63,658 bases of DNA, filler included, from Diploschistes diacapsis (GCA_023645945.1; 28 parts of 28 records of this genome joined end to end with filler, not necessarily neighbours in it); one strand, 5' to 3'; positions 8,530-59,109 are shown, counted from the whole stretch's first letter. The notes: a model not told the origin generated them from the letters alone. Numbers and translations: made by a program.

Positions 8530-11500
8530 ATTAACGCGATTTGTACCTTGAAACTCAAAAATTATCCAAGAACGAGATCTAATGTGTGGTCAACGTCGTT
8601 GATCGCTTGTATCATTTGCAGGTATCCGTCACTAAACGGGATGCGGATTCCTTGGAACGATGAAATATTCGAAAACGAACGGGAGATCATCCGGTCGATG
8701 AAACTGGAATACTTCTTCCCGATGATCGCCGATGCCTCGCTTGTGCAGATGCTGCTATCGTACTTGAAATTGAGACTGTAACCCGTGATGGTCTTTGACA
8801 CTTCCAGATGTAGCACATAGCCAATCGGCATCGTTACACGATGTCAGCCATGACCATCCAGCGCATATGCTTCACCGACGTAGTTGCGGGCTCAAATGGC
8901 TGGAACAAGTATAATAAGCGACTGGCGGTCGTGGCATCAGCAGATCCTAGTGCTTTGTTGATGTTCGTCGAGTTGATTGACCCGCGTTCAGTGGATTTCC
9001 GAAAAAGATCCTTGTGGACTTGAGAAGGCTCCGTACGTGAGTATTGCTTCCGAACGAGCCTCGAAACGGGGGGAAGTTGGCGCAGTTACCGTTAATAGTC
9101 TGTGCATCTTCCAGAGAGATATTGAGACCGGTGATGAGATTGTCATAGACAACGTCGGGTTTACCGCTCAGCTCTGATAGAAGAATGGTAAAGGCAGACT
9201 GGAAGACGATGGGAATTGTGACGCCGCACTGCGCAGCGAATCCATCGACTCGAATATCATACTGCAGAGTGAATGTGGTAGAAACTTGTCCACCGCGAGT
9301 AGCTTCGGAGAGGGCGGGACAAGGCTTGGGAGCATCGTGCAGGAGCTTGACCCAGAAACTCAGGGTATCTTTCTGCTGCTGCTCTGGTTTGGAAAAGATA
9401 TGACCGACATAGTTTGAGAACTCCAGGGAAGGAGGAAGGACGGAATTCCTGTACCTAACCTTGAACTGTTCGTCGAATATCCTAAAGTAAAGTGCCGTCA
9501 TACATCGCATGATGGATCTTGATAAGAAGGTGCTTCTCTCCGGTCGAAGGTGTATCCAAAAGCCAATAAGTAATGAATGGCTTGCCATTTTCGACCTGGA
9601 AGATCTCTTCCCAGGTCAGCACTGCAATCTGCGGGTCTAGGCGTGGATCCTTTGTAACAATCTGCACCCATCGTTCATTATCAATGGTCCACATCGAGCG
9701 GAGTATGTGATTGTGTGCAGTAAGCCGCTGGGTGTGATCTCACTCCATGAGTTGAAATCAAAGTCTGCAGGAAGTTGCCGCAAGGTTGGACATTGCCAGA
9801 ATTGCTGTTTCGCTGCACCTCGAATCAGAATTCCTCAACGCCTGGTACAACCGGCCAGGCTGCTTTGTATATTTGAAACTAGGAATAGCGGCAACTCCCA
9901 AGGCATTCCTAAGCCGGCCAGAGAGTTTGGAGGTGCATAGTGGTGACGTGGGGCCGCAAACAAGCTGCCATATCTTGTAGTACCGGAAACGCCATAACAT
10001 CAGCTACAGAAAGCGAGCACCCCGATCCGCGGCACTTTCTGACAAGGTTAATTGCTGAAATAGAGTCGCCTCCAAGCGGGAAGAAAGAGCTCACGATGCT
10101 GATAGCCTCCTCGTTGACGCCGAGAATCTCAGTCCACAGTGAACGTAAAGCAGACTGTTCTCGGGTTTTCGGCTTTATATCACACCTTGACCCTCGCCAG
10201 CAAAATTATTGATCGATAATGGTATTATCCATCCCCTGCACAAGAGATGCCAATTGAAGTCGATTAGCATTTCCAGAAGGCAGTTGAGGGACTGACTTTA
10301 GAGCTATCCAAACCGATGGAACCATGTAGGATGCCAGAGTAGTAAGCCTCAGGCTTAGCGAGGTTAGCAATTCTTTGTGCTGGTCAACGTCAAGAATCAA
10401 GCCATCAACAGGCTCGCCACAGTCTATTTGGCTTTCGTTCCGTATCTCAGTCATCACGACAATGGCATCCGGCACAATTTTAGTGGCTAAAAGGGCACTC
10501 TCGACCCCTCCAATTTCGATCCGATGGCCGTTGACCTTGACCAGACTATCTTTTCTCGCCCGCAACATTCTATCTGCTGCCGAGGGCCCCAGCGAGCAAG
10601 ATCGCCTGTTCTGTAGATCTTTCTGGACCCATCGTGACGAAAGCCTTTTGCGTAGCTTCTGGTAGGTTCAGGTACTCTCGTGCTAATTGACAGTCCCCGA
10701 GACAAAGCTCGCCGATAGCGCCGTAAGGCATGGGCTTGGTCCCATCCTGCTCAAGAATCATTACGGAGCAGTGTTTCAGAGGTCTGCCAATGATTCTTCA
10801 ATTAGAATGCGGCCCGATAAACTCGGCTGCGGAAAGGATAGAAGCTTCTGTGGGTCCGTACCAGTTCATGACTTTGCAATGTTTCGTCCATATTTCTGCA
10901 AGATCTTGCGGAACTTGTTCCCTAGCCAGATATATTCCTTGCACACTGAGCAAATCTTCAGGCTTCAACAACCTGGCAACGGTCGGCGTAGGGAACAATG
11001 GTCAATGCTCATCTCATTGATGACATCAGGAAGGTTGGTAAGCATGTCCTCTGATGAAGCCATACAAAGCGGGGCCACAACTTTGAAAGTGCAGAAGATG
11101 TCACCAACGGCAACGTCGAAAACATAGGAGAACTCGCCAGGATTGTTCAAAGCTTTCAGCTGCAAGAATGTTATTAATTCCAGAGGAGATGGACTTGTGG
11201 AAGATAATAGGCCAGATGATCTGGTGTCAACCCAGGATTTTGAAAGTTGCCATCATGATTACGTTGGCAATCGATGTCAAAAATGTCCAGAACTTGGACA
11301 CTTTTCATGGAGTCGTTGAAAATAGGAACGTAGTCCTCGGTCGTAATTACTAACATCGCCGATACGTCTTGAACAATGAGGTTGTTTTTTTCAGCTGGAT
11401 TATCGGGATCCAAAGGTACAAAAGCTCCTCCGGCCTTAAGGATAGCTAGTATACAGAGTATCTGCTCCGCAGACTTGGGCAGACAGATAGAGACCAGCAC

Positions 11501-12050
11501 ATCTGGGCCAACACCTTGTTCTCGTAGATGACTGGCGAGCTTGTTGGCTCTAGCATTCATTGTAATAGGCGTTTCGGTTTTGAAGCAGAGGCCCTGCAAG
11601 TCCCCCAACAGCTGCAGTGATTTCTTCGAAGGCTTGCGCCGTGCATGTTTCGCGTATCATGGATCGGAACGTCACGACTTCATAACGTCACGGCGAATGT
11701 GACATCGGAATTTCCTGTATGCCGCGATAGAATCAAAGCCCAAGCAGCGTAGATCAACACCCCAGTGGATGAGGTCGCCCTTGAGGTCAGGAGCCTGAGG
11801 TCCCCTGTACCGGTTTTCTTGGACACATTGAAAACATCAGTCTCCCAGCTCATACAGGTTGGTTGAGCATTCTTCAAATATTCTGTCCAAAATGTCTTTG
11901 CAGCACCCACGTCAGAGCTCTGCAAATGCTGCACAAAAAGGGAGAATTGAGGACGATGCATGAGCGACTTTCCCTTATATGCTGTGTTCATATCATCGAA
12001 AGAAAAAGCTGGACAGCAAGAAATCAAATAGTCCGTGATGCATGCTAACT
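8530..12050 (-). pseudogene. NRPS pseudogene (partial C - A - T - C), possibly siderophore-synthetase type
   Basis: Motifs are spread over several frames: ILKAGGAFVPLDP, FDVAVGDIF, NWYGPTEAS, IYRTGDLARW, VKVNGHRIEIG, the T-domain FFPLGGDSISA and the C-domain HHAMYDG. There are many frameshifts and stops, and the A10 Lys is lost (PSGN). Confidence 0.88.
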
Positions 12051-12214
12051 ACGAGTACATTGTCAGCAAGGCTTGTCGCTCTGATCAACAGCTCATCGAG
12101 ACCTGTGATATATATTGATGCAGCCTATGGGCGATCTCGCAAGTTAGTCATAGGTTAGGAAGGAATCCCATTATCGACCCAAATGTAACGCGAATGCTTG
12201 TTATAGATAAGAAT

Positions 12215-12383
12215 TGTAGTAGATCGTAGTGTGTAGTATTGGATTGAATAATGATCGCCAGCTAGGTGGGCCAGCGAGCACTATATAGCTATAGTGGGCA
12301 GCATCGTCATAGATGCTGCTGCAGCGACGTCAGCAGCGACGTCAGCAGGACCTACCCCTAGCAGCACCAGCTATGCCACTGCA
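12215..12383. mobile_element. Solo LTR (169 bp) with 5-bp target-site duplication
   Basis: TG...CA termini (TGTAGTAG / CCACTGCA) flanked by AGAAT at 12210-12214 and 12384-12388. Shares CATCGTCATAGATGCTGC with the reverse complement of the chromovirus LTR at 46037-46229. Confidence 0.85.
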
Positions 12384-12552
12384 AGAATCCTGTTAGAGCG
12401 AAATAATATGAAAATCAGATCGCCTATCATGACTTAAAATGCAGGCAAATGAACACTACAGCGAGCCTAAAGCGTGATAAAGGTCAAAGAGATCCCTCTA
12501 TCGAATTAAAAAAAGGGAGGGGGATTAATATAGTCTGCGGCATCAATATGAT

Positions 12553-12758
12553 GTCGAATGATGAAGACGACTGCTGGCAGACCTTTTCGTCGAAGGAAGG
12601 TTGTGGGTTCGATTCCTCCTGCTGTCACCGTTATGAATATCATTCACTCCAGGCTTGGCAACCTGGTCTAATCTTAGAGCGGCTGGTTACTTTTGGCGTA
12701 ATGGTCGAGACTCGGCATCGATAAAACAGGTTTTCAACTTAAGTTAACAAGCAGGTCG
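12553..12758 (+). repeat. Left copy of ~200-bp diverged direct repeat with tRNA-like T-arm/B-box
   Basis: Aligns to 17211-17425; 12669-12720 vs 17326-17377 is 44/52 identical. B-box GGTTCGATTCC at 12606-12616. Confidence 0.85.
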
Positions 12759-12782
12759 ATAAAGGTGCAAAATAAATAATAG

Positions 12783-12803
12783 CAACAACAACAACAACAA
12801 CAA
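12783..12803 (+). repeat. (CAA)7 microsatellite
   Basis: Seen directly in the sequence. Confidence 0.9.
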
Positions 12804-13885
12804 AATTTTAATCACCGCCAAATACTGTATTAGTGGTGAATGGTACTAGGATATTAATATAATAGTATTTAAAGTGGGGAGTTTTGAGGATAATATTAAA
12901 GAATATTAAAATAAATAAATGCTAGGTTAATTCAGCTTCAGGTGACAATGCAATTCATAAGTAAATGATTTTGATAGTATCCTAATCGGGCATGGCGTTT
13001 GTGCCTTACTGTACCGGCGGTCCACTAAGGTGGACGCCGGCGGGATACTGAAAACCCCTTTACTTCATTTCAAGCATTAAGCCGAAAACTAAAGGTAGAA
13101 GGAATTCCCACAGTGAGATTAAGACATACGTGCTGTATTGCATGTTCCAATGCGCGGCGGGGTGTGGTCAGAAGTCGCGCCCTATGTCTGGATTTGAAGG
13201 CGGCACGTGAAAACTTCAACCCGATGCAGCAGAATAACATAGGATGCTCGAAAGCCTAGTCTGTCAGACAGGGATCGGGCAGTATGCACGGTAAAGCCGT
13301 TTAAAGGAGCGATGTCACCAGAACTGGCTCAGGCATAAGGTAGTACCGAGTCTATCCACGGCCACGGCCTGGAGAGAATTTGGAGTAGCTTAGGGTAGGT
13401 AAGGTATGCAGGTGAGACAGGTGACACGGACCCTTCTACGCACATCACATCACAGCATCTGCATGAAGTAGGAGTCCAGTATAACTAACGCCCGCTTTCT
13501 GTGAATGCTGCAATGTATCTATCTACTGGGTTGAATGGGCCGCCAGTACCAATCAGTTAGAATATGGATGAGGTGACTCAAGAAGCAGCAACTTTCATCA
13601 GCCGGGTCTGGACTGGTCCCTGAGAAGCTTCTCAACACTCGTGCATCTGGGTCTCCCACTATAGCTCTACGGCCTAGCAAGAGCCCACACAGCTGGCTAC
13701 CCCAAAGCACTCCAATATATTCGCAAACCCCTCAAACCCTATTCGACGCCTTTTGCGGTCTTGATGGTGGTCTCTTATAAACTCAGTGCCTATTTAATGC
13801 TACGCTCACCCACATGTGATAACCATCAAACCATTCTTTCCTTCCCAATCTCAGCTAGTGGTCTAATCTCAGCAACTACTTCAAA

Positions 13886-15046
13886 ATGCCTCTCGACCCA
13901 AGCCTCCTCACCTCGGCCATTAGTGCCATGGTTGGATACCCCGTGATTACGTATGAAGAGTACCAACGCAATCGGCCAGCGGGCTTTCATCCGCTTGACA
14001 TGGAGGCATTCCACAAGTCAGTATTAGTTGCACCAGCACCGGCACCAGCACCGGCACCGCGACCGCCGCCGCCGCCGCCACCTTACTCTGGGTCTGTACC
14101 CCCGCCGGGGACGGGATCAGGGTCGGGAACGGGGTCGAGCTCGGTGACGCAGCCTGGGATACAGCCAGGGACGCAACCGTCGCAACAAGTGCATCAGCCA
14201 TGGACAGGACTATGGTCGCAAGTGGTAACTCGAGCGGGAGAGGTACTCCAGCCGGGGGCGACTACACAGGAAGTGCAATCGACCCAGCCATCGAACGCCC
14301 TAGTCCCGGGCCTGCTCAGCATATTCGTCAAGACGTTGACGGGCAGAACGATCACGATTCCAGTCACATTGAGCGAGACAATCTACGAGATCAAGCAGAA
14401 GATTGAAACGAAAGTGGACATACCAGCCGAGGAACAACGGCTCGTCTATGCCGGGAAGCAGCTCGAGGATGGCCGGACCCTGCGTGACTACCAGGTCGAG
14501 GAGAACGCAACTCTCCACCTGGCGCTTAGGATTCGCGGCGGCGGCCCCACTGGAATGTACCTCGCGCAGGACTTCCTTGATCCGAGCTATGATTTCGACT
14601 TCACGAAGGTGAACGACTACGGCGTGTCGTTCTCCCGCGGGAAGGAGGTGTACCAGCGCCCGACCGGATGGCAGCGCTTTGCGCTCAAGGTGGACAACAA
14701 GTACGGCTCGAATCTCACTTGGTTGGGCAGCTCGAACGTGACCGGTGAATGGCCGGTTTCGTATCACGGCACGAGTCTGGCGGGCGCAATGTCCATCGCC
14801 GACGAGGGTTACAAACTGGCGAAATCGAGGAACTTCGTTTATGGTCGCGGGATCTATTCTTCGCCGCGACATACGATTGCTGAGGCGTACGCCCAGACTT
14901 TCCAGAAGGATGGGAAGAAGTACAAGGTTATCTTCCAGAATAGGGTGAATCCGGCCCAGCTTCAGAAGATTCCTAAGATCGATTACTGGATTAGTGCCGC
15001 GGATGCGGATATTCGTCCGTACGGTCTATGTATCAAGGAATACTAG
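13886..15046 (+). CDS. Pro-rich/PPxY + ubiquitin-like domain + NEURL4-type ADP-ribosyltransferase domain protein (386 aa)
   Basis: Intact ORF. A 76-codon Ubl spans 14315-14542 ([13 protein letters not shown]...[19 protein letters not shown]...LRIRGG). ART motifs are [36 protein letters not shown] and [10 protein letters not shown]. Confidence 0.88.
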
Positions 15047-15672
15047 AGAACGAAAGCTTAGGTGATGAAGCTCTTAGGAAAATGCATCTTTGTTTTCTCG
15101 TGGAGATTCTACTCCATCGAACTTTGAATCTCAATGACGAAGAAAATGGAAGTAGTATCGAAAGCCTCATTTACGCTTTTCAACTAAGATACTAGTCGTT
15201 TGCCCAATGAAAATTAATGTCGCGAGTCCGATAGGGTAATGGCATGAAGGACTTTCTTGTCCCCACACAATATGATTCCTTTTCCTGTCGCTTTGCGCGC
15301 TAGGCAAAGAATCAGCACGCAGAGCATTGGTGTGAAGAGGGGGGGGGGACATGTCCACACGAGACGCACTAGGTAACGAACAGGGTTGAAATGGCGATGC
15401 TACAGCTGCATTGCCACTTCGAAACCGACCGTCGAGATGGAAAGTGGTCGGGCTCGAAAGAAAACAATGGCCTCGAAAACCAGTCGGCTAAGTAGACCAA
15501 TATTCACTCCATCTTCGTCAGCTGACAGCACTGTCGTGTCGTCTTGGAATTGCACACTAGTCATAATTAGGCAGATAGGCGTGCAGGTGCTGTGGTGGCT
15601 TATAAATTGCAGGCTCACAGCCGTTGATGCTTTCTGTTATTCTTGACCTGAAGATTGTTCGCAGCTAGCAAT

Positions 15673-16731
15673 ATGTCAAACATTTTCTGCCTTCAATGCC
15701 GACAGCGACCTAAGAGTACGGATCACACGTTCTGCTCCAAGCAATGTGGCCGTACCGCTGCCGATTACGCTCCAAGTCTTCTGTGGATTCCCACTGACCA
15801 TGTTCAGTACGCAAATGGTGTGTGCGTCATCCTCGTGCCCAGGATGCGAGTTCTAACAGTATCCTTACGGTCTCCAGTAGCACAGCATTGGGCTGATGGC
15901 TGGAAGAACGGACCAGCTCCGGCCATCAAAGCGATGTACCTGGTCACCTGGAGCAAGGCTTCACGAGATGACTTCGAGAGCTACCGGTACGACCCAGTTT
16001 CTGGCTTTGCAGAGGGGAGTCGATTAAGAAGACCCTGGATACTAGCCGCGAAATCGAGTCCCAGACGAACTTTCGTGCAAAAGGTTGGTTTGAAGGCAAT
16101 GAGCAGAAGCGCTTCTGGGGGGTTGATAGAGCATGCGATATCGGCGAGAACGGGGTCACTGCCGTATGTTACAAAAGCAACTGCTGGCTTTGTACCGTTC
16201 TCCAAAACGGATTAAGGGGATACTTGAGAGCTCAGCGGACTCTGGGGCTGTGAGCACCACCGTTGCATAAAACTGCACCGACACCCTCTTGACATTGATG
16301 GCCTAGACACGGCAATCGGCTAGGGCCTGGCATATACACTACCAGGACTTCCTCCAAGTACGTTCGATCCCGTGTTCGTTTTTCTACAGTTTTAATGATT
16401 TACTGTTTCTCCCAGAGCAGCAGACCACGCCGTCAATGTCGGCCATGCATCGAGCTCGAATGTGCATGTCATGGTCATGTGTAGGGTCGTGATCGGGAAT
16501 TCGTACATCACCAAGACAGAACAACCCACTTTCCACAGCCCTCCCAGCAAGTACCACTCCGTGAGTCCTGCCATCGGCCAGGTGGGTAGTCTTTCTAATT
16601 CATATATCCGCTAACAGTGACTTGTTGCGCAGGTGCTCGGAGACCCTGGGCCAGGCAGCAGCTTTGCTAATAACGAGTTGGTGGTATACACCGAGCGGGC
16701 AATTCGCCCGGCCTATGTCATTGTGTACTAG
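15673..16731 (+). CDS. Six-exon Zn-finger + PARP-like ADP-ribosyltransferase-fold protein (250 aa)
   Basis: Exons 15673-15817, 15878-15986, 16046-16249, 16307-16357, 16416-16560 and 16633-16731, all with GT-AG introns of 57-72 nt, give a 753-nt open frame. Motifs: CLQC-x11-CSKQC, GNEQKRFWG, RLGPGIYTTRTSSKA, MVMCRVVIG and NELVVYTERAIRPAYVIVY. Confidence 0.85.
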
Positions 16732-17210
16732 ACATGATCTGCGAACGGGCTACAGCTTGTGTATTTAGGAATTATACGAGATAAGATGTGGGTTGGGGGT
16801 AGATGCAGATAGAAAGCAAGAGGTATCCATGCTGGGATGATCTGAAAACCCCCATCCAAGCCGCACCTTTACAAAAATTATTTCAAATCACAATACTGGT
16901 ATAGCTGTTGCATTGTGTGAGTTCCTGCTCTATACCACTGAATATTTTGAACAACTGAAGATTTAAACGATATGCATTACGAATTAATTTTATGACCGTC
17001 GATAAAGCATTATTAATTCTTTTATTCCTTTTTAAAAAACTCGCGGGACATTCAAAACAAAGTAAACATATTTTAGATTATTTTCGATAAAGATAAACGC
17101 CATAAAAGAATACAATCTGGAAGAGATTTTACCATTGAAGAATAATTTAGAAGTGAATTTAAACATGTAATATAAAATATGTTGAGAAATAATTAATTTT
17201 GGCGTTATAA

Positions 17211-17425
17211 GTCGAATAATGAAAGTAACTACTGACAGACCTTTTCGGAGGTCGTGGGTTCAATTCCCACTGCTGCCACAACCCCAAATATTTTTTTTAA
17301 TTTCAGGCTCAATATCGTAACTTTTTAATCCTAAAGCGGCTAGTTACTTTTAGCGCAACGGTCGGTACTCGGCATCGGCATAATCAATCTTTCGAGATTT
17401 CAACTTGGGTTAGTTTAGTAGGCCG
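17211..17425 (+). repeat. Right copy of the direct repeat, containing a tRNA-Leu-like 3' half (pseudo-tRNA)
   Basis: Variable-arm-like CCTTTTCGGAGG, perfect T-arm GTGGG-TTCAATT-CCCAC (17254-17270), acceptor strand TGCTGCCA, then a T8 tract at 17291-17298. No intact 5' acceptor strand. Confidence 0.8.
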
Positions 17426-17440
17426 TATTTAAAAATTTAC

Positions 17441-17480
17441 TAGTCAGTCAGACTAACCAATTTGGGTTAATACTCTGACA
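17441..17480 (-). mobile_element. Terminal fragment of a Copia family-C LTR (TGTCAGA...)
   Basis: CAGACTAACCAATTTGGGTTAATACTCTGACA matches the termini at 37098, 49636 and 57151. Confidence 0.7.
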
Positions 17481-17652
17481 GATATAAATTAAAATATAAG
17501 TATTCAGATAGCGGTTTCTTAAAGCATTAACGTTAACGCTAAACCGGACCGAGGTCGCTAGACCCAAGGAGGAAAATCGCCTCGACAGAATTAACGCGTA
17601 AGTTTGCCCCTCAATATGCGTAAATAATCAAATCTCTGTATGATGATGAAGG

Positions 17653-19323
17653 ATGCCTAGGTACATTGGGATCTTATAGGGTCCAAAGTAGTGTTCTGAC
17701 CTTACCAGAGAAATCATAACGGTCCAGGCCGGCCAATGCGGCAACAGCAGTATGTTACTCGTACACAGCTAATTGAAGGAGGGTATCTAAGGCCAAGCAG
17801 TTGGGAGCCAGTTCTGGCAGCAGCTATGTCAAGAGCACGGAATAAACCAGGACGGCAACCTCGAGGACTTTGCGACCGAGGGAGGTGATCGGAAAGATGT
17901 CTTCTTCTATCAAGTACGCCTGCCTCCATCTCAAGGCGACCAAAGGGCGGCTTGCTGATCGGACCGCAGAGCGATGACACCCGCTACATACCACGAGCCA
18001 TTCTGGTCGATCTCGAGCCAAGAGTATGCTACAAAACTCAACCAAGTTGGTAATGTGCTTACAATGGTTCATCTAGGTAATACAAGGAATTCAGAGCGGC
18101 CCCTACAAAAATATCTACAACCCCGAAAACTTCTTCGTCAGCAAAGATGGCAGTGGCGCTGCCAACAACTGGGGGGCTGGTTATGCCGCGGGCGACGGCG
18201 TCCAAGAAGAGATATTCGACATGATCGACCGCGAAGTCGACGGCAGCGACTCCCTCGAGGTATGCCTCCCTCTTTCCCTCGTCTTCCCCATCACCTTTGA
18301 CAACGGCGCCAGGGCTTCATGCTCCTCCACTCCATCGCCGGCGGCACCGGATCCGGCCTGGGCTCGTACCTTCTCGAACGCATGAACGACCGCTACCCCA
18401 AGAAGCTGATCCAGACCTACTCCGTCTTCCCCGACACCTCCGCCGGCGGCGGCGACTCGGTCGTCGTGAACCCCTACAACTCGCTCCTTGCGATGAAGCG
18501 GCTGACGCAGAACGCCGACTCGGTCGTCGTGCTCGACAACGGCGCCCTCTCCCGCATCGCCGCGGACACGCTGCACATCCAAGCGCCCTCCTTCCAGCAA
18601 ACGAACCAGCTGGTGTCGACGGTGATGTGCGCCTCGACCACGACGCTGCGCTACCCGGGCTACATGCACAACGACCTGGTCGGCATCGTGGCCAGCCTGA
18701 TCCCCACGCCGCGCTGCCACTTCCTCATGACCTCCTACACGCCCTTCACGGGCGACAGCGTCGAGCAGGCCAAGACGGTGCGCAAGACCACCGTGCTCGA
18801 CGTCATGCGCCGCCTCCTGCAGCCGAAGAACCGCATGGTGTCGACGACGCCCAGCAAGAAGAGCTGCTACATCTCCATCCTCAACATCATCCAGGGCGAC
18901 GCCGACCCGACCGAGGTGCACAAGTCGCTGCTCCGCATCCGCGAGCGCTCCCTCGCCACCTTCATTCCCTGGGGCCCGGCAAGCATCCAGGTCGCGCTGA
19001 CGAAGAAGAGTCCCTACGTGCAGAGCGCGCACAGGGTCAGCGGGCTGATGCTGGCGAACCACACGAGCGTCGCGACGCTGTTTCGGCGCATCGTGGGCCA
19101 GTACGAGAAGATGCGCAAGCGGAACGTGTTCATCGAGGGGTACAAGCGCACGGAGCCGTTCAGGGACGGGCTGGAGGAGTTCGATGCGGCGAGAGAGGTG
19201 GTGGGGGGTTTGATACAGGAGTATGAGGAGGCGGAGGGGGAGAATTATTTGGATGTGGGGAACTTGAACGTTAAGGGAGAGGGAGGAGGAGGAGGAGGAG
19301 GAGGAGCGGGGACTGGGGCATGA
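17653..19323 (+). CDS. mipA: Gamma-tubulin, complete, six exons
   Basis: Exons 17653-17660, 17709-17749, 17801-17913, 17970-18023, 18077-18259 and 18313-19323. Reads [15 protein letters not shown]...[27 protein letters not shown]...[10 protein letters not shown]...[13 protein letters not shown]. Confidence 0.97.
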
Positions 19324-19914
19324 ATTTCGGGAAGGAGTTGGTTGTGGGATGTAAGCAAGCTGAGGGTGGTATGAAACGGAGTCATTCACCATGTCAAAAC
19401 CACAGGTGGAGTGCAATCCTGAGACGAGTCATGAGCGATTGAATCTTGTTTGGCTTTTAAGCCAAGGGGTATCATATATTGCATCCATACCCTGCTCCGT
19501 CCTGCATGAACGAGCCTGCCGCTGTCGCTAACGGATCGAGCCTCATCTCTCTGGTCTTGAAAACAAGATCGATGTAAGAAGGTCTGCGCTGCTCAGAGCC
19601 TAGCTTGGCCCGTCCTATAAAAAGTTTAAGCTCGTTATCGCAAGAAGTTGTTAGTGTGACAGCTGGGGCCCCGGGGTGGAGCAAGCCTACACCAGCCAGC
19701 CAGCATTGATTGCTATCGTGGCATGTTGCGGCCCTGAGCCAGTCCTTACGGAGGCCGGCCGGGCCTTTCTTTTGCATCGGTTCGCTGCATTGGATGCCAG
19801 TGGAGGCCTCCGGCATACTGCTGCAGTCTCGCAAAAGGTGACTCGTAGGTATCGTAGGAATTGGGCTCCTTTTCGTCTACACGCTCAGTGGTATGCTGCG
19901 ACATGGTAGCTCGG

Positions 19915-21123
19915 CTATCCGGCTTCGATCTGGAGTTCGGCTGCTGACTCTCGTTTTACTCTTGTCTCTGTATCCAAAGACACTCTGTGTGTTGTCCTGT
20001 CCTGCGACTCCTCCATGGCTGATCCTCCTTTGTAGCGGGAAAAGGTCGTTGGCCGACCTTTTGTGGGCGCTGGCGGCTCTAGGAGGCCTGCGTATTGCTT
20101 TTGGCTCCACCAACCTCTACTTGTATGCCCGGTGTTGCTCGGTCGGTACCGTAGAGCTTTCGAGCGCTTGCTTGCCCCAGAACTTTCGCGTCCGAAGAGG
20201 CTGCGAAAGGTAGACAGCGAGACTACGATTACTGCCGTCGCGGCTTCCATGGCTTGCCAGAAGGCGATCCAGGACGTGTCGCGAACTCCATTAGGCAAAG
20301 GCGCGAGAGTAGTGCGGACGATGGCCATGACGATCATGGCGCTTGAGAGGCTGAGCATGCTCCCGAGCGTCAGCTTGCGGCGCAGGCTGATGTGGACCTT
20401 CCAAAGGAGGGCAACGGGCACGGAGATGATGAGGACATCTGTAAAGATATCGAGTGCTGAGGTGACATTGAGGTAGACGCGCTCGCGGTAAAGCTGGAAT
20501 GCTATCGGGCAGTACTCTAGTACACACGTGAGCGCTCAGTTCCACGACGTAAGTGGCTTATGCTTACGCATGTAGTCGGACGTAAGAACAGGGCAGATCA
20601 TGAAACCCATTGGCATAGTCGCCAGCCCACAGACAACCGTGATACCTGTAACTACCCGCCAATGGATCTCGAACACACGCACTCGATCAACGAGCTTGCG
20701 GAACAAGCAGAGGAAGGAGAGCTTGATGGCGTAGATTGTTGACCATATCAAGCAACTACATACTTGAATCCGCTTCTCGAAGTCGAGCATCTGGACATAA
20801 AAGTCTGGTGGCGGTGCTTGCCAGCCTAAGCCGACATAGATTTGTACGTACACGAGATGATCAATGGTGTATGCAAACCCAGCGGCAACGGCACTAGCTG
20901 CAACCGCGTAGAAAAGAAAGTAATCGTCGGCATAGAATTTGCGTAAGTGGTAGAAGCGAACGATAGTTCTCGCCACAGCGGACACCACGCTGATGGCAAG
21001 AAACGTTGCGATGAAAGCCTGAAGAGGATCAGGAGCGTTGCTTCAGCCTCAAGTCAAGTCTCTTACCACGAAAGCCTGAGGTTGAATGCGCAGCGAGTAG
21101 CTAGCTGGGACAGAGACATCCAT
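19915..21123 (-). CDS. PTH11-like (fungal rhodopsin-domain) integral membrane protein, three exons, no CFEM domain
   Basis: Introns at 21019-21066 and 20517-20567. Motifs FYADDYF, WSTIYAIKLSFLCLFRKL, LDIFTDVLIISVPVALLWKVHISLRRKL and EAATAVIVVSL; multiple hydrophobic helices. Confidence 0.87.
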
Positions 21124-21438: not shown

Positions 21439-22715
21439 CAGTCACGTGCCAAAAGTAATGGTCCCTACCTAAATTATAGTAGACATCACCAACTTTGGAG
21501 ATGCGATGCGCACCCAAAGAATGTCCTACAAATGCGCTTTTTAGATCATTTTGATGCCCTTTATTCGTAGTATCTATTAATACTTTGTTTACCACCCCTG
21601 CGCGTCGTATACAGCCTGAATTCGCGTAGGTATCGAGTAGATTAATCGAGCAGGCAAATCCCACTCCCTATCTGCCGTAATTTGACCAAATGCCTCGATA
21701 ATAGCAGCTTTTAAAGCCTGTTTCTTATTATCCTTGCTCCCACGCATTGTTTTAAGCTCTGAATGAAACCGAAATACCTCCTCTTTTAATCTAAGCCAAA
21801 AATGCTCTATAGCGTTTAAATCTGGACTATATGGTGGATGATCGAGAACCCAGACGCCGAGACTCTCTAAAAGCGTTTTAACAACGTTTGCAGTGTGTAT
21901 AGAAGCATTATCCTACAAAAAACCTTGCCCAGGTTCGTAGATTTGGGGCAAAATATCCCTTAATAAAGCACAATAAGCCTCGGCGGTAGCACTTCGTCCA
22001 TTTATATAGTAATCTTCGAAGAAACACCACACGACGCGTCCATCGGCTCTCATACCAGCCCAAAGCATGATGCTTTCCTTATTTCTAACCGTTTTTGCTA
22101 GGTGATCGGGAAGCCATTGTTCTCCTATATATCTCCATACCCATTTTCGTACTTCACCACTTCCTATTGCTATAGAGCACTCGTCGGTGAACCAAATATT
22201 AACAAAATCCTCGGCGCGCCAAGTTCGGTGTATTCGGGAATACCTCAGGCGTTTTTCCGCATCTTCAGGCTCTAAATATAGCTTCCACCGCATCCTATAT
22301 TTTTTGAAAGAGGGGTCGATGTCGCGGAATCTTCGGCGCACTATATTTTTGCTGATAGACGAGATATCGAGCAATTCAGACCACTCAGATTCTGGATGGC
22401 GTCTGGCCGTTCGATAGAGCCTATTTTCTTGATTTTCGGACGTTATTCGAGGTCTTCCGGAGCGCTTCAGATCATCTTGGTCTTCATCACGCTCTGAAAC
22501 CTTTACTATTGTCTTTTTGGCTGTAGAATAAGGAATATTTAGCCTATTGACTGCATTTTTCAGGATAGCACCTGATCTGTATGCGCCTATAAGCTCAGAG
22601 CGCTCCCAGAGCTTCAAACGACGATATGGTGGCATTATTGTAGAAATAATAGTAGGCATTTATTGTTTATTTGCACCGATTTAACCGAGGGACCATTACT
22701 TTTGGACTAGTACTG
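21439..22715 (-). mobile_element. Full-length Tc1/impala-like DNA transposon (1277 bp)
   Basis: TA target duplication at both ends. TIRs are CAGT-N6-CCAAAAGTAATGGTCCCT and enclose the transposase. Confidence 0.93.
21577..22659 (-). pseudogene. DD34E transposase with premature stops
   Basis: RSGRPR HTH linker, WFTDEC, FL*DNASIH and HPPYSPDLNAIE (34 residues between D and E). The stops are at positions consistent with CAG>TAG and CAA>TAA. Confidence 0.92.
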
Positions 22716-23336
22716 TAGCTGCTAGATAGCGCTTTTTCTGGGGCCTTGGCAATAAACTAACCTAATGTAACAGCGGGGTTAGCGGGGTTAGTGCCTAATA
22801 GGTAGCACTATCCCATACACAGTATAGTATTTCAAATTCGGAGTTCTCTTTCGGTGAAGCGAACGAAAGCAATGGCAGCACACCTGTTCTGTGCCATCAA
22901 CGGCAAGACGTACCGTGTATCTGTACATCCAGAGGCTTTCGACTTATCGAAGTAGAGGTTCGGAGGTCGGATGTTGGAGGAAGCCGCTGTTAGTTCATGT
23001 TGAATTGAATGGCGTTGAAGGCGCCAAGCTTTTGGTGCAGGCTAACACTCGGATAGATGAGCTTTGACTTTAAGCAATAGATTTGGTCAGTGGAAGGTCA
23101 GTAACGTCTGTCATCTACGCCTCTCTCCCAATTTCTCCCACTCCCTGCTGTGGCAAGTCACTCACACGTTCTCAAGCACATTCGACTGTCGCAATGTAAG
23201 AGACATATAGGAATACTTTCCAGGCAACTTCTCTGCCCACTCTGCGGTTCAAGGAGCATAGCAATGACATGATTCGCCGATTGTTCCCGCCCGGCAGTTT
23301 ACGTACTTGTTCCTTGAGCTTGAATTCAATAGCAGG

Positions 23337-24884
23337 ATGCCACCCTCTAATCGACCCTCGAGGGTCTTCGCCGCTACAATCTTTATCTTCCTTATATTTT
23401 TCATCTTCCACCATGTTCGACAGGTTCCAGCTGAGGCAGTGGACACGTATTTCCCAGATGCGTCAAGAATGGAGCCCGATTACAAGCCATTATCTGACGA
23501 ACAACATTCGTCCAGACCCTTCTTCGGCTCTCCTGGGGCCGGCGTTCTGGCGCCTCCGGTAGCCGAGCCAGAAGACAGCTCGGAAGTCAAGCCGGAACTC
23601 GTCGAAAATGCATATAGATTACCCACCGCAGACTCGTTTCGAACGCATTTCAGGGCCGTTACTCAATTGCAAGGGATGTCGGTGGAGGAAGCCAAATCCA
23701 GCTGTCAATGGCCGGAAATGAGCGAGGTCAACTTCCAATTCCTTGAAAATGATCATGAATGGGTGAAGCAGGATCCAAGCGATGCGGAGGTCGAGGCGCA
23801 GAGAAAGAAATGGCATGATTTCGTAGACAACAGGCTGGTGCCGTACGAAGATCACAAGAGTCGATTCGAGGGTCGAGGTATAGTTATTGTTGCTGGGAAT
23901 GAACAAAGCCTGAAGCGGGTGAAAGTTGTTCTCCGAGCACTGAAAAAGCTGGGGTCCAACCTACCAATTGAAATTCATTATTGGGCGGATGAGATGACTG
24001 AGGACTACAAGGAGGACATTTCTGCCATGTGGCCAGAGCTGGCTTTCAATGATCTCTCGGCGCCATCAAACGTTCTCAAGACTAACCATGATGGGCTTTT
24101 CATTAATTACCAGCTGAAGACGGCCGCCGTGGTGAACTCACGCTTTGCGGAGCCACTTCTGCTCGACTCGGACAACATCCCCGTTATGGACCCGACGTCG
24201 TTATTTGAATCCTCGGTCTATAGAGAGTACGGTACTTTGTTTTGGCCGGACATCGCGCGAACACGTCCCAACAATCCAATCTGGAGCGTCACGAATACTC
24301 GATGTCGCACGTACGAGTACGAGCAGGAGAGCGGGCAAATGATTGTGGACAAACGACGCTATTGGTACCACCTCCAGCTCGCGGCTTGGATGAACAACGA
24401 AAGTGGTGAATACTACAACAGGTACCTGCTTGGAGATAAGGACACCTTTCGCTTTGCGTGGCATGCGTTGCGGACCGAATATGGTTCGCCATCGAAATGG
24501 CTTACAAGTGTCGGCACCATTGCAGATGATGGGTTTTATTGCGGTCATAGCTTCGCGCAGTATCATCCGGACGGGGGTGTCGCATTTTTGCACGGAGGTC
24601 TGATCAAGACAATGGCCAAAGAGGTTATTAAATGGCAGCGGGATAGCCGCGGAGGCGTCTTTCAAGTTTACAAGAAAAGCGACTACGACGAGCAACATTT
24701 TATCAACGTCAACGTCTCAATCAAAGCGGACCCGGCAACATATTTGCCGGATAGGCCGGAGAATCTGGCCGTAGCTCTGTGTACAGATTTCCACCAGGTT
24801 ACTGCGCGGCCGATGGATGAGTTGGCGTCTGGGTTCGAAGAGACGTTCCGGGAGATTGGCGGTTATTGGATGCTCGACGATTAA
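23337..24884 (+). CDS. GT71 family alpha-mannosyltransferase (Mnn2/Mnn5-like), type II membrane protein
   Basis: N-terminal TM anchor. Motifs GRGIVIVAG, LPIEI, LLLDSDN (DxD), LFWPD, EQESGQMIVDK and GDKDTFRFAW. First ATG at 23337. Confidence 0.9.
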   Translation: MPPSNRPSRVFAATIFIFLIFFIFHHVRQVPAEAVDTYFPDASRMEPDYKPLSDEQHSSRPFFGSPGAGVLAPPVAEPEDSSEVKPELVENAYRLPTADSFRTHFRAVTQLQGMSVEEAKSSCQWPEMSEVNFQFLENDHEWVKQDPSDAEVEAQRKKWHDFVDNRLVPYEDHKSRFEGRGIVIVAGNEQSLKRVKVVLRALKKLGSNLPIEIHYWADEMTEDYKEDISAMWPELAFNDLSAPSNVLKTNHDGLFINYQLKTAAVVNSRFAEPLLLDSDNIPVMDPTSLFESSVYREYGTLFWPDIARTRPNNPIWSVTNTRCRTYEYEQESGQMIVDKRRYWYHLQLAAWMNNESGEYYNRYLLGDKDTFRFAWHALRTEYGSPSKWLTSVGTIADDGFYCGHSFAQYHPDGGVAFLHGGLIKTMAKEVIKWQRDSRGGVFQVYKKSDYDEQHFINVNVSIKADPATYLPDRPENLAVALCTDFHQVTARPMDELASGFEETFREIGGYWMLDD

Positions 24885-26078: not shown

Positions 26079-27365
26079 GCGTGACCGAGCGTCCTTCACT
26101 TCGCATGCCACTTTCTTTGAGAGCCGACACATCTCTCAAGTCATCGATACCCAGCTTGTACATGCTATTATTCAGGGAGTTGTTTAGCAGATAGCACAAC
26201 ATTCATCGATTTCCATTGCCTGCTCCATCTCGGTAGTACTGGTCAAGACGGTTGGCTTTGACAGTACTCCGTACTACTTGACGTGTGCACGGTACGAATG
26301 ATCCGACAAGTTATTCAGTTGGAGCTGCTGTCAAGGGGTGCTTGGAGTCTGTATTGTGAAAACTACGAGCCATGAACAGCTGGTTGAGTTAGTAAAGCGC
26401 AACGATGCGATTCAAATTTCTTTTTTTACATACTTGCATGCTTGAGCGAATACTATACATCTTGCTGCAGGGTTTCCACAAGCTCTGACCGTAGTTTCTC
26501 CATATAATAGTGTATACGACATAGCGATCATGGTGGCCCAAGCGCTGCGCAGCTCTATTCTGTGAGTTTGCGAATTCTAGGTCGGGCAGGTCAGTGGAAA
26601 GCATCAGCCCTTCAAGAAGTCTTAAAAATGTTGACTTGGGCTTGAAGTAGATAGTAGCAAAGCCATGAAGGAGGCTTGACGCTGACGCTAAAAATAGCTA
26701 CAGCCCTAACAGCTTTGGATTGGTCATGGAAGGACACAAGGCCCGCAGCACACGGCGCCTATTCTCCTCAAATTCTCCTCCACACTTCTCACCATCACCC
26801 CAGGAATGTCCATTCAGACTCCCTGTACTTTTTTCAGAGCTTCATGGATAGCGTCCTATCCCATCGCCAGCTTCTCAGCGGTTCAATCCAGCATCGACTC
26901 CCATTTCTGGTCTGCTATGCCGTCACCGCAGGTTCGCGGCGCGTACAAGGCACGCTCCTGTACCGACCACCTTCATGATGAAAAGCTCTCCATGGCAAGG
27001 TCTTTCTCGGCGTCAGGTTTTCGCATTCTCCTTTGCTTCTGCTTTTCAATTCCGGCCGCTGCTGGGCCAGCTTTCCTTTCTCATCTCTTTTCTTAATATA
27101 ATGTATTTACCGAGTGTATAATATCAGTATATCTCAAATGTCGAGGGCCAAGTCTTTGAAGCCTCATAAGTAAGTCATTGCCTCTTTCAGGTGCTTCGCC
27201 GCCTTCAACATACTTGCTGTGGAGGGGCTGCCACCGCACAGCCCTTTGATTCTAGCCTCCGTGTGTCCTTGATAACACAGTTTTGGCCTTTCTGAAGCCG
27301 CAATTAGCTCACTGTGCCAGCCCGTATCGATAACACGCTGACGATGGGTTTAGTCTTCCTGCACC

Positions 27366-29429
27366 ATGTTGGCGGCTCTTTTCTTATGTTTATCGCTTTT
27401 AATCGATCTGACGTTGGCTGGTCCACGGTTATATTCTCTACTCCCCTCTCAAAAGTTCGCTTCCGTACCTCAGTGTGCCTCTTCCTGCCTAGAAGAGTTC
27501 ATTGCCACTTCCTTTCCGACTTCGACGTGTCCAGAGCAGGGAGACATTGCTTGTCTCTGCACCAGCAATAGCCTCTCGGGGTTTACATTGGGGGAAGGTG
27601 CACTGCAGTGCGTTGCTGCTAGTTGTCAAAACGTGCCTGTTTCCGAGTACCAAGCGGCGTATGCGGTTTGCGCCAACGTCCCTAATGCCGCTCCTGAAAC
27701 TCACGGCACCATCTCAGCAACCATGGCTTCTCCTTCGACGATTCTTTTCAACCCAGGAAGCAGTCCAACTTCGTCAGCAAGCAGTGCTGCTCCCGCTTCC
27801 GACAGCTCTGCCAGCGTATCATCCACCATAACGGCCTTGGTCACCAACACTGCCAGCCCCTCTCAGCAGACTGGTTCTTTTTCAATTCGATTTTCTGGGA
27901 CTTTGGATCCCTCTTCCGGGTCCCCAGAGTGGTCAATGAGTTTGGCCACTGCCACGGGTATTGTCGCAACCCCACAAGCCGCCTCCTCTACCGCGCTTGC
28001 AGCGCGTCCAGTCCTGGACACTTCACAAGTGATAGGCGTTTCCATCGCCGGAGGCGTACTTTTGCTGGCTGCAGTAGGCGTTTTGTTCTTCATCTTTTGC
28101 GCGAAGCGAAGAAAGGAGGCTAGACGGAACAGTGCATCCTCCTTCGGGGGCGACGAGATTATCGGAGGTGCTCCGAATATTTTCGACAAGAATCTTGGAG
28201 GGGATAGTCCCCACCCTACAAGCGCACAGCCAAATTATGTCTCGCCCAAAGCCCAGCAAATTCTCGGACCCGATTTGAACAGATGGAATCTTTGGCACAG
28301 GGCGCCAAAGCCCCAAGATATCGGTCTCGCGATAACGCCAAGGCTTGAGCAAGGATTTGTGTCGAAAACATCACCTGCAAGCATAGCTAGCTACCAAACG
28401 ACGTCAAGACTTTTGCCAGACAAACCGATATATCCTCAAGGACAAGCTCCAATGTGGCGGCCTTTCCTTCCACCTATCTCTCGCAAAGCTGTTCCTCCAC
28501 CTCTTCCTCGAAGACCTGTTCGCTTCGCTGGGGGTGTAGGACTGCGGATAGTCAACCCAACACCAACTGCTTCAAGCTCCAACTCGAAGGAATTACGCCA
28601 AAGTCCACACTCGAGTCCGGAGTCGGTTCACAGTGGGCCAATTATCAACCGACAGCCCTCAGACCCTTTTTTCCGGCCTACCGAAAATTCTCTGCTAAAA
28701 CCCAAGGCAACGGGATTAAGGAGGGCCTCCAGAAATGATCTACCTCGCCTCCTGACCTCGACCAGCCAGCGTACTGCAACTGGATGGGATCAGAGTACGC
28801 CACAGTCTCTATCTCGACCGCGCGCTGCATACAATCCTGCTGAATATGCACGCGTGATGCAACAACCATCCCAGCAGTCAGTATGGAAACCTGCAGCCCA
28901 CCCGACAGCACAACCTCCACGACCGCAGCGGGCAGGCAACAATCTTCATTTCCCGACACATCCCCAGTACATGCCGTACGATCCGTTAGCCGTCGCACAA
29001 GAACCCACCTTCAACAAATACGCTCCGATCAAGACCTTAAAATCTAGTAACATACGGCCCCTCACGTATCTAACCACCGGCTCGGAAACAAGCTTCGAAG
29101 ACGACAACGACGGGGACGACGCTCGCATCTCGGCTGCGTGGCCCATGTCAGCAGCCATCGAGCCCGTCCTTTCGCCAGTCGCCGAGTCACCTCGAGGGCA
29201 CTCACAAGCGCAAGCTTCACCGCAACCGCAGCCGCATCCGCATGCCCATCCGCGTCCCCATCAACAACCACAACCCCTCAGCCAAATCCGCTACCCACCT
29301 ATCCCGCGTAAACCTTCCTCCAAAAAAACTCTACGCAGCTCCCCCGCAAAACCTTCTCCCCACTCTCACTCTCCCGCCAGGCCCTCTCCAAAACCCAGCA
29401 TCTCCCCCTTCAGCACAACCTCCAACGCG
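27366..29429 (+). CDS. CFEM-domain single-pass membrane protein, 3' truncated by gap
   Basis: Signal peptide, eight-Cys CFEM domain (PQCASSC...CPEQGDIACLC...QCVAASC...VC), Ser/Thr stalk, TM helix followed by KRRK, and a long Pro/Ser-rich tail. Confidence 0.85.
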
Positions 29430-31091
29430 NNNNNNNNNNNNNNNNNNNNNNNNNNNNNNNNNNNNNNNNNNNNTTAATTAATTAANNNNNNNNNNNNNNN
29501 NNNNNNNNNNNNNNNNNNNNNNNNNNNNNTCTATATCCTACTCGGTTCTTCTATCGTCTAAAATAATGTTACGAATGATTTATAATTTCATAATTTAAAA
29601 AATATATTTATTCGGGATTTCAATAATTAATAAATATCTCGCTTATAGCTCGTCGACTTACCGATTTATAAATATAATGTTCTTTATAATAAACGTCGCA
29701 AGTTAGGCGAGTCGTTAAGATATAGTTATAGAAATATATACGAGTTAGGATCTATTTCGTATACCGAATATAGGCGAATTCCTTTAACTCATGTTTCGAG
29801 GTGGCGATGCGTTGGCTTATTAGTAATAATACGATGACACGTCGCTATCTTTATCTTTCTAGAGCGAATGCCCTTATCTTTAAAGGTAATAAAGACGTCT
29901 TCGCTTTTAGATATAATAATAAAGATTCGATAAGAATAAAATAAATAACTAACGAGAATAAGAACAAAGAAAGAAAAGAAAAGATAAAGAAAATAAAACC
30001 TTTATACTAAATCCACGCTAGTAATGAATCAATAATAATAATATATCAAAATGTTAACGACTTGCCGTCGACGCGCTAGCCAGGAGTTAATAAACATTAA
30101 ATAAAATTATATATTAATAATTAATATTATTAGGATATAAAAGATTAACGACACGTTAAAGATCTATTATCGTATAATTAATAATAAAGGTACGTTACGA
30201 GGGTTAAACGTTCTGAGGACAGAGTTTAGGAAAAAAAAAGGTAATTGTAATACGTAGAACCCAATAAAGGGCTACTAGAAGGTATGTTAAGTATATACCA
30301 AGGCCCGCTAGCGTGTTCTTATATAAGAACAGAGTTTTCGTAGACAGAGATAGTTCTTTAGAAGTTATTTCATCAATATATCTATCGTCTAACAGAGACC
30401 TAGCTAGCGAATAGCCACTTATCTGCCTTATTGTCACACTGTAGTATTAACCTTTACATTAAGATTAATCTTTTTCGCCTAATTTAGAAATTTCGACGAC
30501 GACGCGTTTTTTTTTAACGATTTCTTTTTTTCGCGAGACTTCTGCGGTTACTGACCGTAAAGACTCCGTTAATATCTCGTTATATATTAATAATTCCCGT
30601 CGCGATAAAATAACGGTGTCCGTTAGATCTACGGCTGCTATCGATCTTCTAATATCTCGAAATATAATCGCGGTTTTTCGCTTTTTTTTCGTTATTTTAT
30701 CGGACCATTACTCTATTAAAAAAAAAGAAATTAAAACTATAAAAGATAAAATACAGTAATATAATAATAATAATTATAATATTCATAAACTAATCTTTAA
30801 AGAAAAAAAGAGGAAATCCTTCTATAAACACGTCTCTTATAACCTACGGTCTTAAAGCGGCCTTAGCGGGGCGTTAGGACTGAGTTCCTCCGCTCGCCCG
30901 GAGGACTGTCACAGCTATCTATTACATAATCTCAATTTAAAAAATAAACGTCTTATTTTCTTTAAACTTAACTAAATTAGTTTTAATAACCNNNNNNNNN
31001 NNNNNNNNNNNNNNNNNNNNNNNNNNNNNNNNNNNTTAATTAATTAANNNNNNNNNNNNNNNNNNNNNNNNNNNNNNNNNNNNNNNNNNNN

Positions 31092-59008: not shown

Positions 59009-59109
59009 GNNNNNNNNNNNNNNNNNNNNNNNNNNNNNNNNNNNNNNNNNNNNTTAATTAATTAANNNNNNNNNNNNNNNNNNNNNNNNNNNNNNNNNNN
59101 NNNNNNNNN

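Follow-up and report, generated by a model that had tools for sequence, protein, structure and literature searches.

The window analysed here, i.e. the whole stretch of 63,658 nucleotides (filler included) from Diploschistes diacapsis (GCA_023645945.1; 28 parts of the 28 records of this genome, joined end to end and not necessarily neighbours in it), contains between positions 12553 and 17425 a pair of genes of the ADP-ribosyltransferase (ART) superfamily, enclosed by two copies of a ~200-bp direct repeat. A sequence-only reading of this DNA had described two intact, co-oriented ART-fold genes of different families, lying 626 bp apart (15047-15672) between a dead nonribosomal peptide synthetase (NRPS) gene and the gamma-tubulin gene, and our analysis confirms this arrangement: both genes lie on the plus strand, the first is a single open frame of 386 amino acids (aa), and the second encodes 250 aa after splicing. 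To the left of the pair, the NRPS relic (8950-12048, minus strand) consists of Condensation (8950-9615), PP-binding (9912-10205) and AMP-binding (11177-11656) pieces, each in its own stop-bounded frame, and an in-frame stop separates the open reading frames (ORFs) 9909-10205 and 10206-10667. To the right, the large exon of gamma-tubulin (18301-19323, plus strand; PF00091 and PF03953) is the conserved neighbour of the pair, and its top named matches come from lichen-forming Lecanoromycetes, including Xylographa (88%), Imshaugia (87%) and Lambiella (86%), with Hypocreales at 81-82%; further contigs gave gamma-tubulin matches at 90-93%.

Gene 1 (13886-15046) consists of one exon and encodes a conserved N-terminal module (aa 1-50; 13886-14035), a linker rich in proline, glycine and serine, a ubiquitin-like (Ubl) domain (aa 146-215; 14321-14530; PF00240, E 7e-26) that ends in RIRGG, and an ART domain (aa 225-386; 14558-15043). 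The Ubl domain has both the fold and the C-terminal RGG tail of the ubiquitin family, and the ART domain carries the residues of the H-Y-x (diphtheria-toxin/PARP-like) class, namely a His in the first strand (H294), a Tyr in a GxY motif (Y324) and an amide as the third residue (Q351). The 59 aligned members of the family show no variation in Y293-H294-G-T, G322-I-Y324 or Q351-N-R353, and conservation of the tail GG is at least 90%. The match of gene 1 to a PF00644-type PARP domain is weak and falls under the Pfam cut-off (aa 291-370, E 7e-4). An AlphaFold model built on the 59-row alignment reached a predicted local distance difference test (pLDDT) score of 76.9, the N-terminal module scoring ~90, the Ubl domain ~95 and the greater part of the ART domain 85-95; a model from a 7-row alignment of the ART domain reached 42 and was unusable. 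When the full model was compared with the PDB by Foldseek, the top 50 matches were all ubiquitin (47-61% identity, mostly 56-61%), and a wider PDB structure search was likewise filled by ubiquitin, so that the ART domain was not placed by its fold. At the level of profiles, the gene-1 ART domain aligns with the PARP profile of gene 2 at 95% probability (hhalign, E 2.5e-8), by which the two are judged homologous; weak profile matches (E 0.09-0.5), spanning the YHGT and GxY motifs, connect it with the catalytic domains of exotoxin A as well, and a protein-language-model look-up returned PARP-domain clusters at 0.97. By the residue rules for the H-Y-Q triad the domain is predicted to be active, and gene 1 most likely encodes an active mono-ART.

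Gene 2 (15673-16731) starts with an ATG at 15673, ends with a stop codon at 16729-16731, and is divided into six exons (15673-15817, 15878-15986, 16046-16249, 16307-16357, 16416-16560 and 16633-16731, the last including the stop), in a splice model fitted to its relative in Metarhizium rileyi; the five introns are 57-72 nt long and all run from GT to AG. The product has an N-terminal Cys4 zinc finger followed by a PARP catalytic domain into which a second Cys4 element is inserted. Its Pfam matches are to PARP and, weakly, to DUF7129: the window exons scanned singly score 14.8 and 11.7 bits against PARP (PF00644), and for the M. rileyi relative P0121 the score is 42.9, the cut-off being 26.7. 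In addition, the profile of the gene-2 family matches the catalytic domains of PARP4 (1.4e-17) and tankyrase (~1e-15). In place of the H-Y-E triad, in which His and Tyr bind NAD+ and Glu is catalytic, gene 2 has W-Y-E.

This substitution can be followed through the family. Gene 2 and the M. rileyi PARP-domain protein are 75.6% identical over 250 columns from end to end without a gap, and the next nearest relatives are only 45% and 44% identical. A search with exon 3 of gene 2 returned a single protein, M. rileyi ED733_002423, from a strain other than RCEF 4871, and an HMMER search with the M. rileyi relative returned 1006 cluster representatives at E<=1e-3, 49 of them at E<=1e-30; the top ten are proteins of Halenospora, Hirsutella, several Boletales, Emydomyces, Serendipita and Ceratobasidium. 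In an alignment of 152 members, made up of the window protein, P0121 and 150 representatives, H-Y-E is found in 108, R-Y-E in 16 and W-Y-E in 2, these last being the window and M. rileyi proteins. The family is ancestrally H-Y-E. As the Trp is shared with M. rileyi in a protein 75.6% identical without gaps, the loss of the His is a conserved trait of a small clade rather than a lesion. PARPs without this His are given as catalytically inactive in PMC8932523, and a transferase activity that is altered or lost may therefore be expected for gene 2. One of the independent samples described below (X2) carries an insertion of 26 nt at 15626, which is 46 nt ahead of the ATG of gene 2.

For both genes the closest relatives are found in M. 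rileyi RCEF 4871, i.e. OAA35419.1 (Ubl-ART) and OAA35420.1 (PARP-like, NOR_07999), which have consecutive accessions and are each recorded on a 205,897-bp contig; from the accession order and the contig record, the two genes are taken as adjacent, with the window's gene order. The sequence-only reading had named homologues that are never linked elsewhere as a finding that would speak against a linked pair, and the M. rileyi genes contradict it. A wider view was obtained from 66 metagenome loci encoding gene-1 relatives, 30 of which have at least 1.8 kb of downstream sequence and 36 of which have that or at least 2.5 kb upstream.

Our preferred reading, to which we give about an even chance, is that the two genes form a rare, conserved accessory fungal pair that links ADP-ribosylation with ubiquitin, and that it is situated in a repeat-rich part of a Lecanoromycete-type genome affected by repeat-induced point mutation (RIP). 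The window is fungal, and its composition is a mosaic in which blocks of 25-33% GC (~1-8 kb, 29-40 kb and 45-57 kb) alternate with gene islands, the ART pair being in the island at 8-29 kb. Large blocks of such low GC are typical of RIP-degraded repeats, and hence the pair sits in a repeat-rich compartment. The adjacency in M. rileyi, one distant genome, makes a functional pairing plausible. Several points weigh against it. The M. rileyi adjacency is deduced from consecutive accessions and equal contig size. Furthermore, a gene-2 relative was found by tblastn and by a profile search of six-frame ORFs in none of the 66 loci, including none of the 30 with at least 1.8 kb downstream, in a profile search that recovered the window's own gene-2 exons at E 1e-22 to 5e-9 as a positive control. 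Finally, the species of the ten best gene-2 relatives are absent among the named gene-1 matches. No other window gene is common to the 66 loci either. Judging by the count of none in 66, linkage has been seen nowhere outside the clade that carries the W-type gene 2. The earlier suggestion of a functionally linked pair is thus partly supported: the neighbours in M. rileyi mean that the adjacency is not a chance of this genome alone, and the 30 other Ubl-ART loci do not show it.

Catalysis, processing of the ubiquitin part and partnership of the products, all of which are predictions here, can be combined as follows. Gene 1 is a ubiquitin-fusion ADP-ribosyltransferase, composed of the N-terminal module, a disordered linker, a near-ubiquitin with an RGG tail and an H-Y-Q ART domain. 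Its ubiquitin moiety might be cut off at the RGG, as in natural ubiquitin-fusion genes; alternatively, it might stay in cis as a regulator or substrate. The strongly conserved gene 2, in which the His has become Trp and the Tyr and Glu are kept, could serve as a partner, regulator or adaptor of gene 1. A more specific proposal, which we think unlikely, is that of a dedicated two-component fungal conflict or signalling system travelling as a unit, in which an H-Y-Q Ubl-ART effector would be released or armed at the RGG, and a His-less W-Y-E zinc-finger pseudo-PARP would control or aim it; such a system might go back to the ancestor of most filamentous ascomycetes, or a lichen-type fungus and an insect pathogen might have exchanged it laterally.

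The strongest competitor of the paired reading, possible and clearly the less probable of the two, is that the genes are unrelated neighbours, i.e. two independent accessory genes of the ART superfamily whose shared adjacency reflects descent or transfer of one chromosomal segment. The absence of a gene-2 relative from all 30 loci with enough downstream flank speaks for this, as do the large and patchy nature of both gene families and the diversity of the gene-1 neighbourhoods, which contain HET, Macro, BTB, P450 and other genes. On the other hand, the 2 members in 152 with the W-Y-E form of gene 2 belong to precisely the two lineages in which it was seen beside a type-A Ubl-ART (defined below), and an adjacency kept without selection across a Lecanoromycete-type fungus and Hypocreales is unlikely. 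Gamma-tubulin is just 81-82% identical between these groups.

The history of gene 1 bears on whether the pair was inherited or acquired. A homology search with gene 1 scored 8000 candidates, of which 1040 matched at E<=1e-3. Polyubiquitins make up many of these matches; the genuine Ubl-ARTs, which share all three parts of gene 1, were found in many classes of Ascomycota and in Glomeromycota. The M. rileyi protein is 68% identical to gene 1 over the Ubl and ART parts, three Ubl-ARTs of Orbiliomycetes are 52-57% identical over the full length, and that of Cladonia, a Lecanoromycete, is 46% identical; further relatives occur in Xylaria, Hyaloscypha, Cenococcum, Elaphomyces and many Glomeromycota. 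In the free tree of gene 1, the window falls in a well-supported clade of 14 rows ('type A') together with M. rileyi, Xylaria and Orbiliomycetes, and the Cladonia protein falls in the other main clade. Within type A, the window is sister to the other 13 rows and not specifically to M. rileyi. Constraining the window and M. rileyi to be sisters cost 1.99 log-likelihood units and was not rejected by the approximately unbiased (AU) test (p-AU 0.445). Over the ART domain, gene 1 is more similar to Drechslerella, an Orbiliomycete (73%), than to M. rileyi (69%). Taken with the free tree, this higher identity means that no transfer is needed to account for gene 1, slow evolution and repeated loss being enough. 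Gene 2 is conserved almost as well as tubulin and is isolated within its own family, which makes a transfer of the pair conceivable.

Several other gene-1 relatives have features of their own. In P0082, a eukaryotic relative of 628 aa, two ubiquitin domains occur together with an ART region that weakly resembles PARP and with WWE domains, which bind poly-ADP-ribose; this protein ties the family to ADP-ribose reading. P0022 and P0060 are different Ubl-ART relatives, each recorded on a 10,720-nt ENA contig, and may be tandem paralogues; the former has a C-terminal extension of 115 aa with no Pfam match.

The direct repeat that encloses the pair was confirmed, as were the AT-rich spacers on both sides that had been reported with it. 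The left copy (12553-12746) and the right copy (17211-17412), both in plus orientation, are spaced ~4657 nt apart and align by blastn at 69% identity over 176 columns (E 5e-15); exactly these two copies and no third were found in the window. Just inside them, GC falls to 36-38% at 12600-13100 and to 29-33% at 16800-17300. In the repeat core, 138 columns are identical and 23 gapped, and the differences comprise 43 transitions against 10 transversions; this excess of transitions is the pattern expected of RIP acting on duplicated DNA. Each copy has a piece resembling the T-arm and acceptor of a tRNA (~12604-12633 on the left, 17249-17281 on the right), followed by a second conserved block (12669-12720 and 17326-17377). 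The earlier description of the repeats as tRNA-like holds for the T-arm and the 3' acceptor strand, to which the likeness is limited. ARAGORN found no tRNA in the window, in either copy under relaxed settings or in a de-RIPped consensus, and an Rfam search of 12300-17800 at E<=10 gave nothing above threshold, only a T-arm-sized tmRNA/tRNA-like fragment and noise. A tRNA gene, or a site of integration into one, was accordingly rejected as the nature of the repeats, since no complete cloverleaf was found by ARAGORN and the repeat is not confined to the 3' part of a tRNA, extending ~120 nt past the acceptor-like end. A (CAA)n/A-rich run directly after the left copy (12783-12804, plus strand) could be a SINE-type (short interspersed nuclear element) tail.

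The spread of the repeat was assessed from contigs of four public runs placed on positions 10000-20000. Of these runs, X1 is the probable source of the window, while X2 and X3, with shares of 0.41 and 0.20, represent independent samples. Depth is flat over this stretch except at 12004-12671 and 17014-17681, where it rises 3- to 25-fold. In X1 it reaches 506 and 364 at the left site, and 291 and 196 at the right site, against a baseline of 80-116; in X2 the corresponding values are 2244 and 499, and 328 and 222, against ~85. Many records lie only partly on the stretch (66 of 83 in X1, 133 of 407 in X2), and X1 contigs of 2338-14396 nt match merely 65-111 nt of the repeat. The depth peaks, the partial records and the short matches of long contigs together identify the repeat as a dispersed multi-copy family. 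The two copies are most simply explained as RIP-diverged members of a dispersed, degenerate, tRNA-related SINE-like element. The highest depth of the stretch, in the bin 12004-12337 (506 in X1, 2244 in X2), belongs to a separate high-copy dispersed repeat at 12251-12346, which lies to the left of the bracketing repeat, is distinct from it and has loose ends at 12251-12272 and 12334-12346; assembly contigs break there.

These data also bear on the proposal, put forward by the sequence-only reading, that the pair is a laterally mobile module, i.e. a cassette of 4.7 kb that moves or moved as a block, with the repeats marking its ends or allowing its excision by recombination. The very patchy distribution is in line with this view: the best relatives of both genes are found in a Sordariomycete, whereas the Ubl-ART of Cladonia is 46% identical and belongs to the other clade, and gene 2 is 75.6% identical to M. 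rileyi without gaps compared with 45% for its next relative. In addition, the AU test does not reject the sisterhood of the window and M. rileyi for gene 1, and direct repeats do flank the unit. However, since the repeat is dispersed, two copies in a repeat-rich region mean little, and neither of them lies in a whole tRNA. Between the repeats, only the two ART genes were recognised, short ORFs being listed there and Pfam being run on the two genes, and no recombinase or transposase was recognised in that Pfam scan of the ART genes. The descent of gene 1 also speaks against this view, the window being sister to all 13 other type-A rows in the free tree and its ART domain more similar to that of the Orbiliomycete.

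No credible empty site, and no presence/absence variation, was seen in X2 and X3, the two other samples that hold the flanks. The NRPS relic, both ART genes and gamma-tubulin are all represented among their contigs, at ~1-3% divergence, and the depth over the cassette matches that of the flanks (~82-99 in X2, ~2-6 in X3). The pieces listed for these two samples do not bridge the AT-rich spacers, where the contigs break, and hence do not demonstrate that cassette and flanks are physically linked. In X1, a single contig of 9135 nt at a depth of 79.7 starts at 12330, spans the whole cassette and reaches gamma-tubulin, where the depth shows no excess. Joints that skip ~4657 nt were considered as empty sites and rejected: their sides are 21-37 nt long, they are present in X1 too, and the depth over gamma-tubulin is flat, from which they are read as other copies of the repeat. 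The contigs of X4 cover only low-complexity and conserved tubulin pieces and are uninformative on the cassette. With neither an internal transposase or recombinase nor an empty site with one repeat copy found, the view that the repeats are the termini of a mobile cassette is not supported, and we consider movement of the pair as a block quite unlikely. The spacers of X2 lack 10 nt at 12902, and 125 nt are skipped in them at 17030-17156.

The neighbours of the gene-1 relatives were surveyed by Pfam scans of 26 of the 73 ORFs from six loci and of 71 of the 150 ORFs from 19 loci. HET-domain genes directly adjoin Ubl-ART relatives at two fungal-type loci, in differing orientations (L003:2-985, minus; L008:585-2318, plus), and a Macro-domain gene (L005:14717-15502, minus; E 5e-44) lies 4.2 kb downstream of another, which could represent a writer/eraser neighbourhood. 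R-S-E-type ART genes were found near the relatives at three low-GC, apparently non-fungal loci (L017:1-1323, L023:10525-11445 and L058:2768-3520, all minus), which also hold TPR, NHL, MACPF, AIG1 and CD225 genes and suggest an immune-type gene neighbourhood. We take these HET, Macro and R-S-E neighbours as leads to a conflict or ADP-ribose-signalling context, not as proof of one. They are evidence, along with the accessory, patchy and in some lineages expanded nature of both genes and the fusion of gene-2 relatives to kinase or NADAR domains (among 15 chosen proteins scanned), for a conflict module of the toxin/antidote or defence kind, in which the Ubl-ART would be a toxic effector and the His-less PARP-like protein its antidote, decoy or sensor. 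HET genes are, however, very common in these fungi, so that two such neighbours count for little; no macro, ARH or NADAR hydrolase domain of the kind found in DarTG-like and other known ART antidotes was detected in gene 2 by Pfam; and most Ubl-ARTs occur without gene 2, which thus is not an obligate antidote. This explanation is improbable, and the preferred reading remains that of a conserved accessory pair.

Compared with known systems, such a pair has partial parallels. In open-access papers and bioRxiv preprints, no description of a ubiquitin-fused ART or of such a gene pair was found; what turns up on fungal PARPs is PARP1, PARP-Ubc and short 'PARP-C' proteins. The fungal PARP-Ubc is described there as a PARP6-like catalytic domain fused to the UBCc domain of an E2 enzyme (Citarelli et al. 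2010, PMC2964712; Milo et al. 2026, preprint 10.64898/2026.07.25.740670). Like gene 1, it is an ART-fold enzyme of fungi with a physical connection to the ubiquitin system, and it also has non-canonical triads; gene 1 differs in that it is fused to ubiquitin with an RGG tail instead of an E2, its ART domain is below the Pfam PARP cut-off, and it has a separate PARP-domain neighbour. PARP-C is given in the 2026 preprint (10.64898/2026.07.25.740670) as a PARP catalytic-domain protein. Compared by description only, gene 2 is similarly small, with little beyond the PARP catalytic domain, and its family is mostly H-Y-E (108/152), whereas gene 2 itself has Trp for His and an N-terminal Cys4 finger.

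Outside the fungal PARPs, the likeness is looser. PARP9 works with DTX3L, a Deltex E3 ligase, in the crosstalk of ADP-ribose and ubiquitin, and gene 2, like PARP9, is a PARP-fold protein without the canonical His, for which a role as crosstalk partner may be proposed. The partner of PARP9 is, however, an E3 ligase and that of gene 2 would be a ubiquitin-fused ART, and apart from the PARP fold the two proteins are not akin in sequence. The triad of PARP9 is the degenerate Q-Y-T, and its target is listed as ubiquitin in a table of PMC7955679. The NEURL4-type ART, to which gene 1 had been assigned, is again an H-Y-x domain missed by the Pfam PARP model, and the H-Y-Q of gene 1 fits its motif class, so that the label is conceivable; NEURL4 has neuralized repeats where gene 1 has ubiquitin. 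This type was reportedly defined by de Souza and Aravind in 2012. Its motif class is quoted as H-Y-E[D-Q] in PMC8932523, and PMC7955679 states that the NEURL4-like ART has no Pfam model and mentions bacterial 'ART/macro pairs'. Two adjacent genes built around ADP-ribosylation recall the last of these. DarT-DarG is a bacterial ART toxin-antidote pair of this kind whose antidote is a macro-domain hydrolase; gene 2, in contrast, is itself of the ART fold, and most gene-1 relatives lack it.

The repeat, for its part, can be compared with the tRNA-derived SINEs of fungi, which are ~200 bp long, multi-copy, dispersed and B-box-bearing. It is of the same length and also multi-copy and dispersed, its T-arm piece resembles a B box and precedes a body of unrelated sequence, and one copy is followed by the (CAA)n/A-rich run; it differs in that no cloverleaf or A box could be recovered from it. 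More generally, repeats that bracket genes in a part of a fungal genome rich in repeats and affected by RIP should not be taken for the boundary of a mobile element before copy number and empty sites have been checked. As for the genes, the crosstalk of ADP-ribosylation and ubiquitin is an active field (PARP9/DTX3L, SidE, PARP-Ubc), and fungal accessory ARTs are almost unstudied; if their pairing is functional, the two genes would offer a simple natural system for the role of a ubiquitin-fused ART and for the use of a PARP domain without the NAD-binding His.

Other genes of the window, on the right of gamma-tubulin, encode a fungal rhodopsin-domain membrane protein (19918-21042, minus), a putative mannosyltransferase (23268-24881, plus), a CFEM-domain protein (27354-29474, plus) and ribosomal protein S9/S16 (58289-59053, minus). 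In the same gene island as the pair, ORF 21916-22659 (minus) has a weak match, below the cut-off, to a Tc3-type transposase helix-turn-helix (E 2e-5) and is probably a Tc1/mariner relic.

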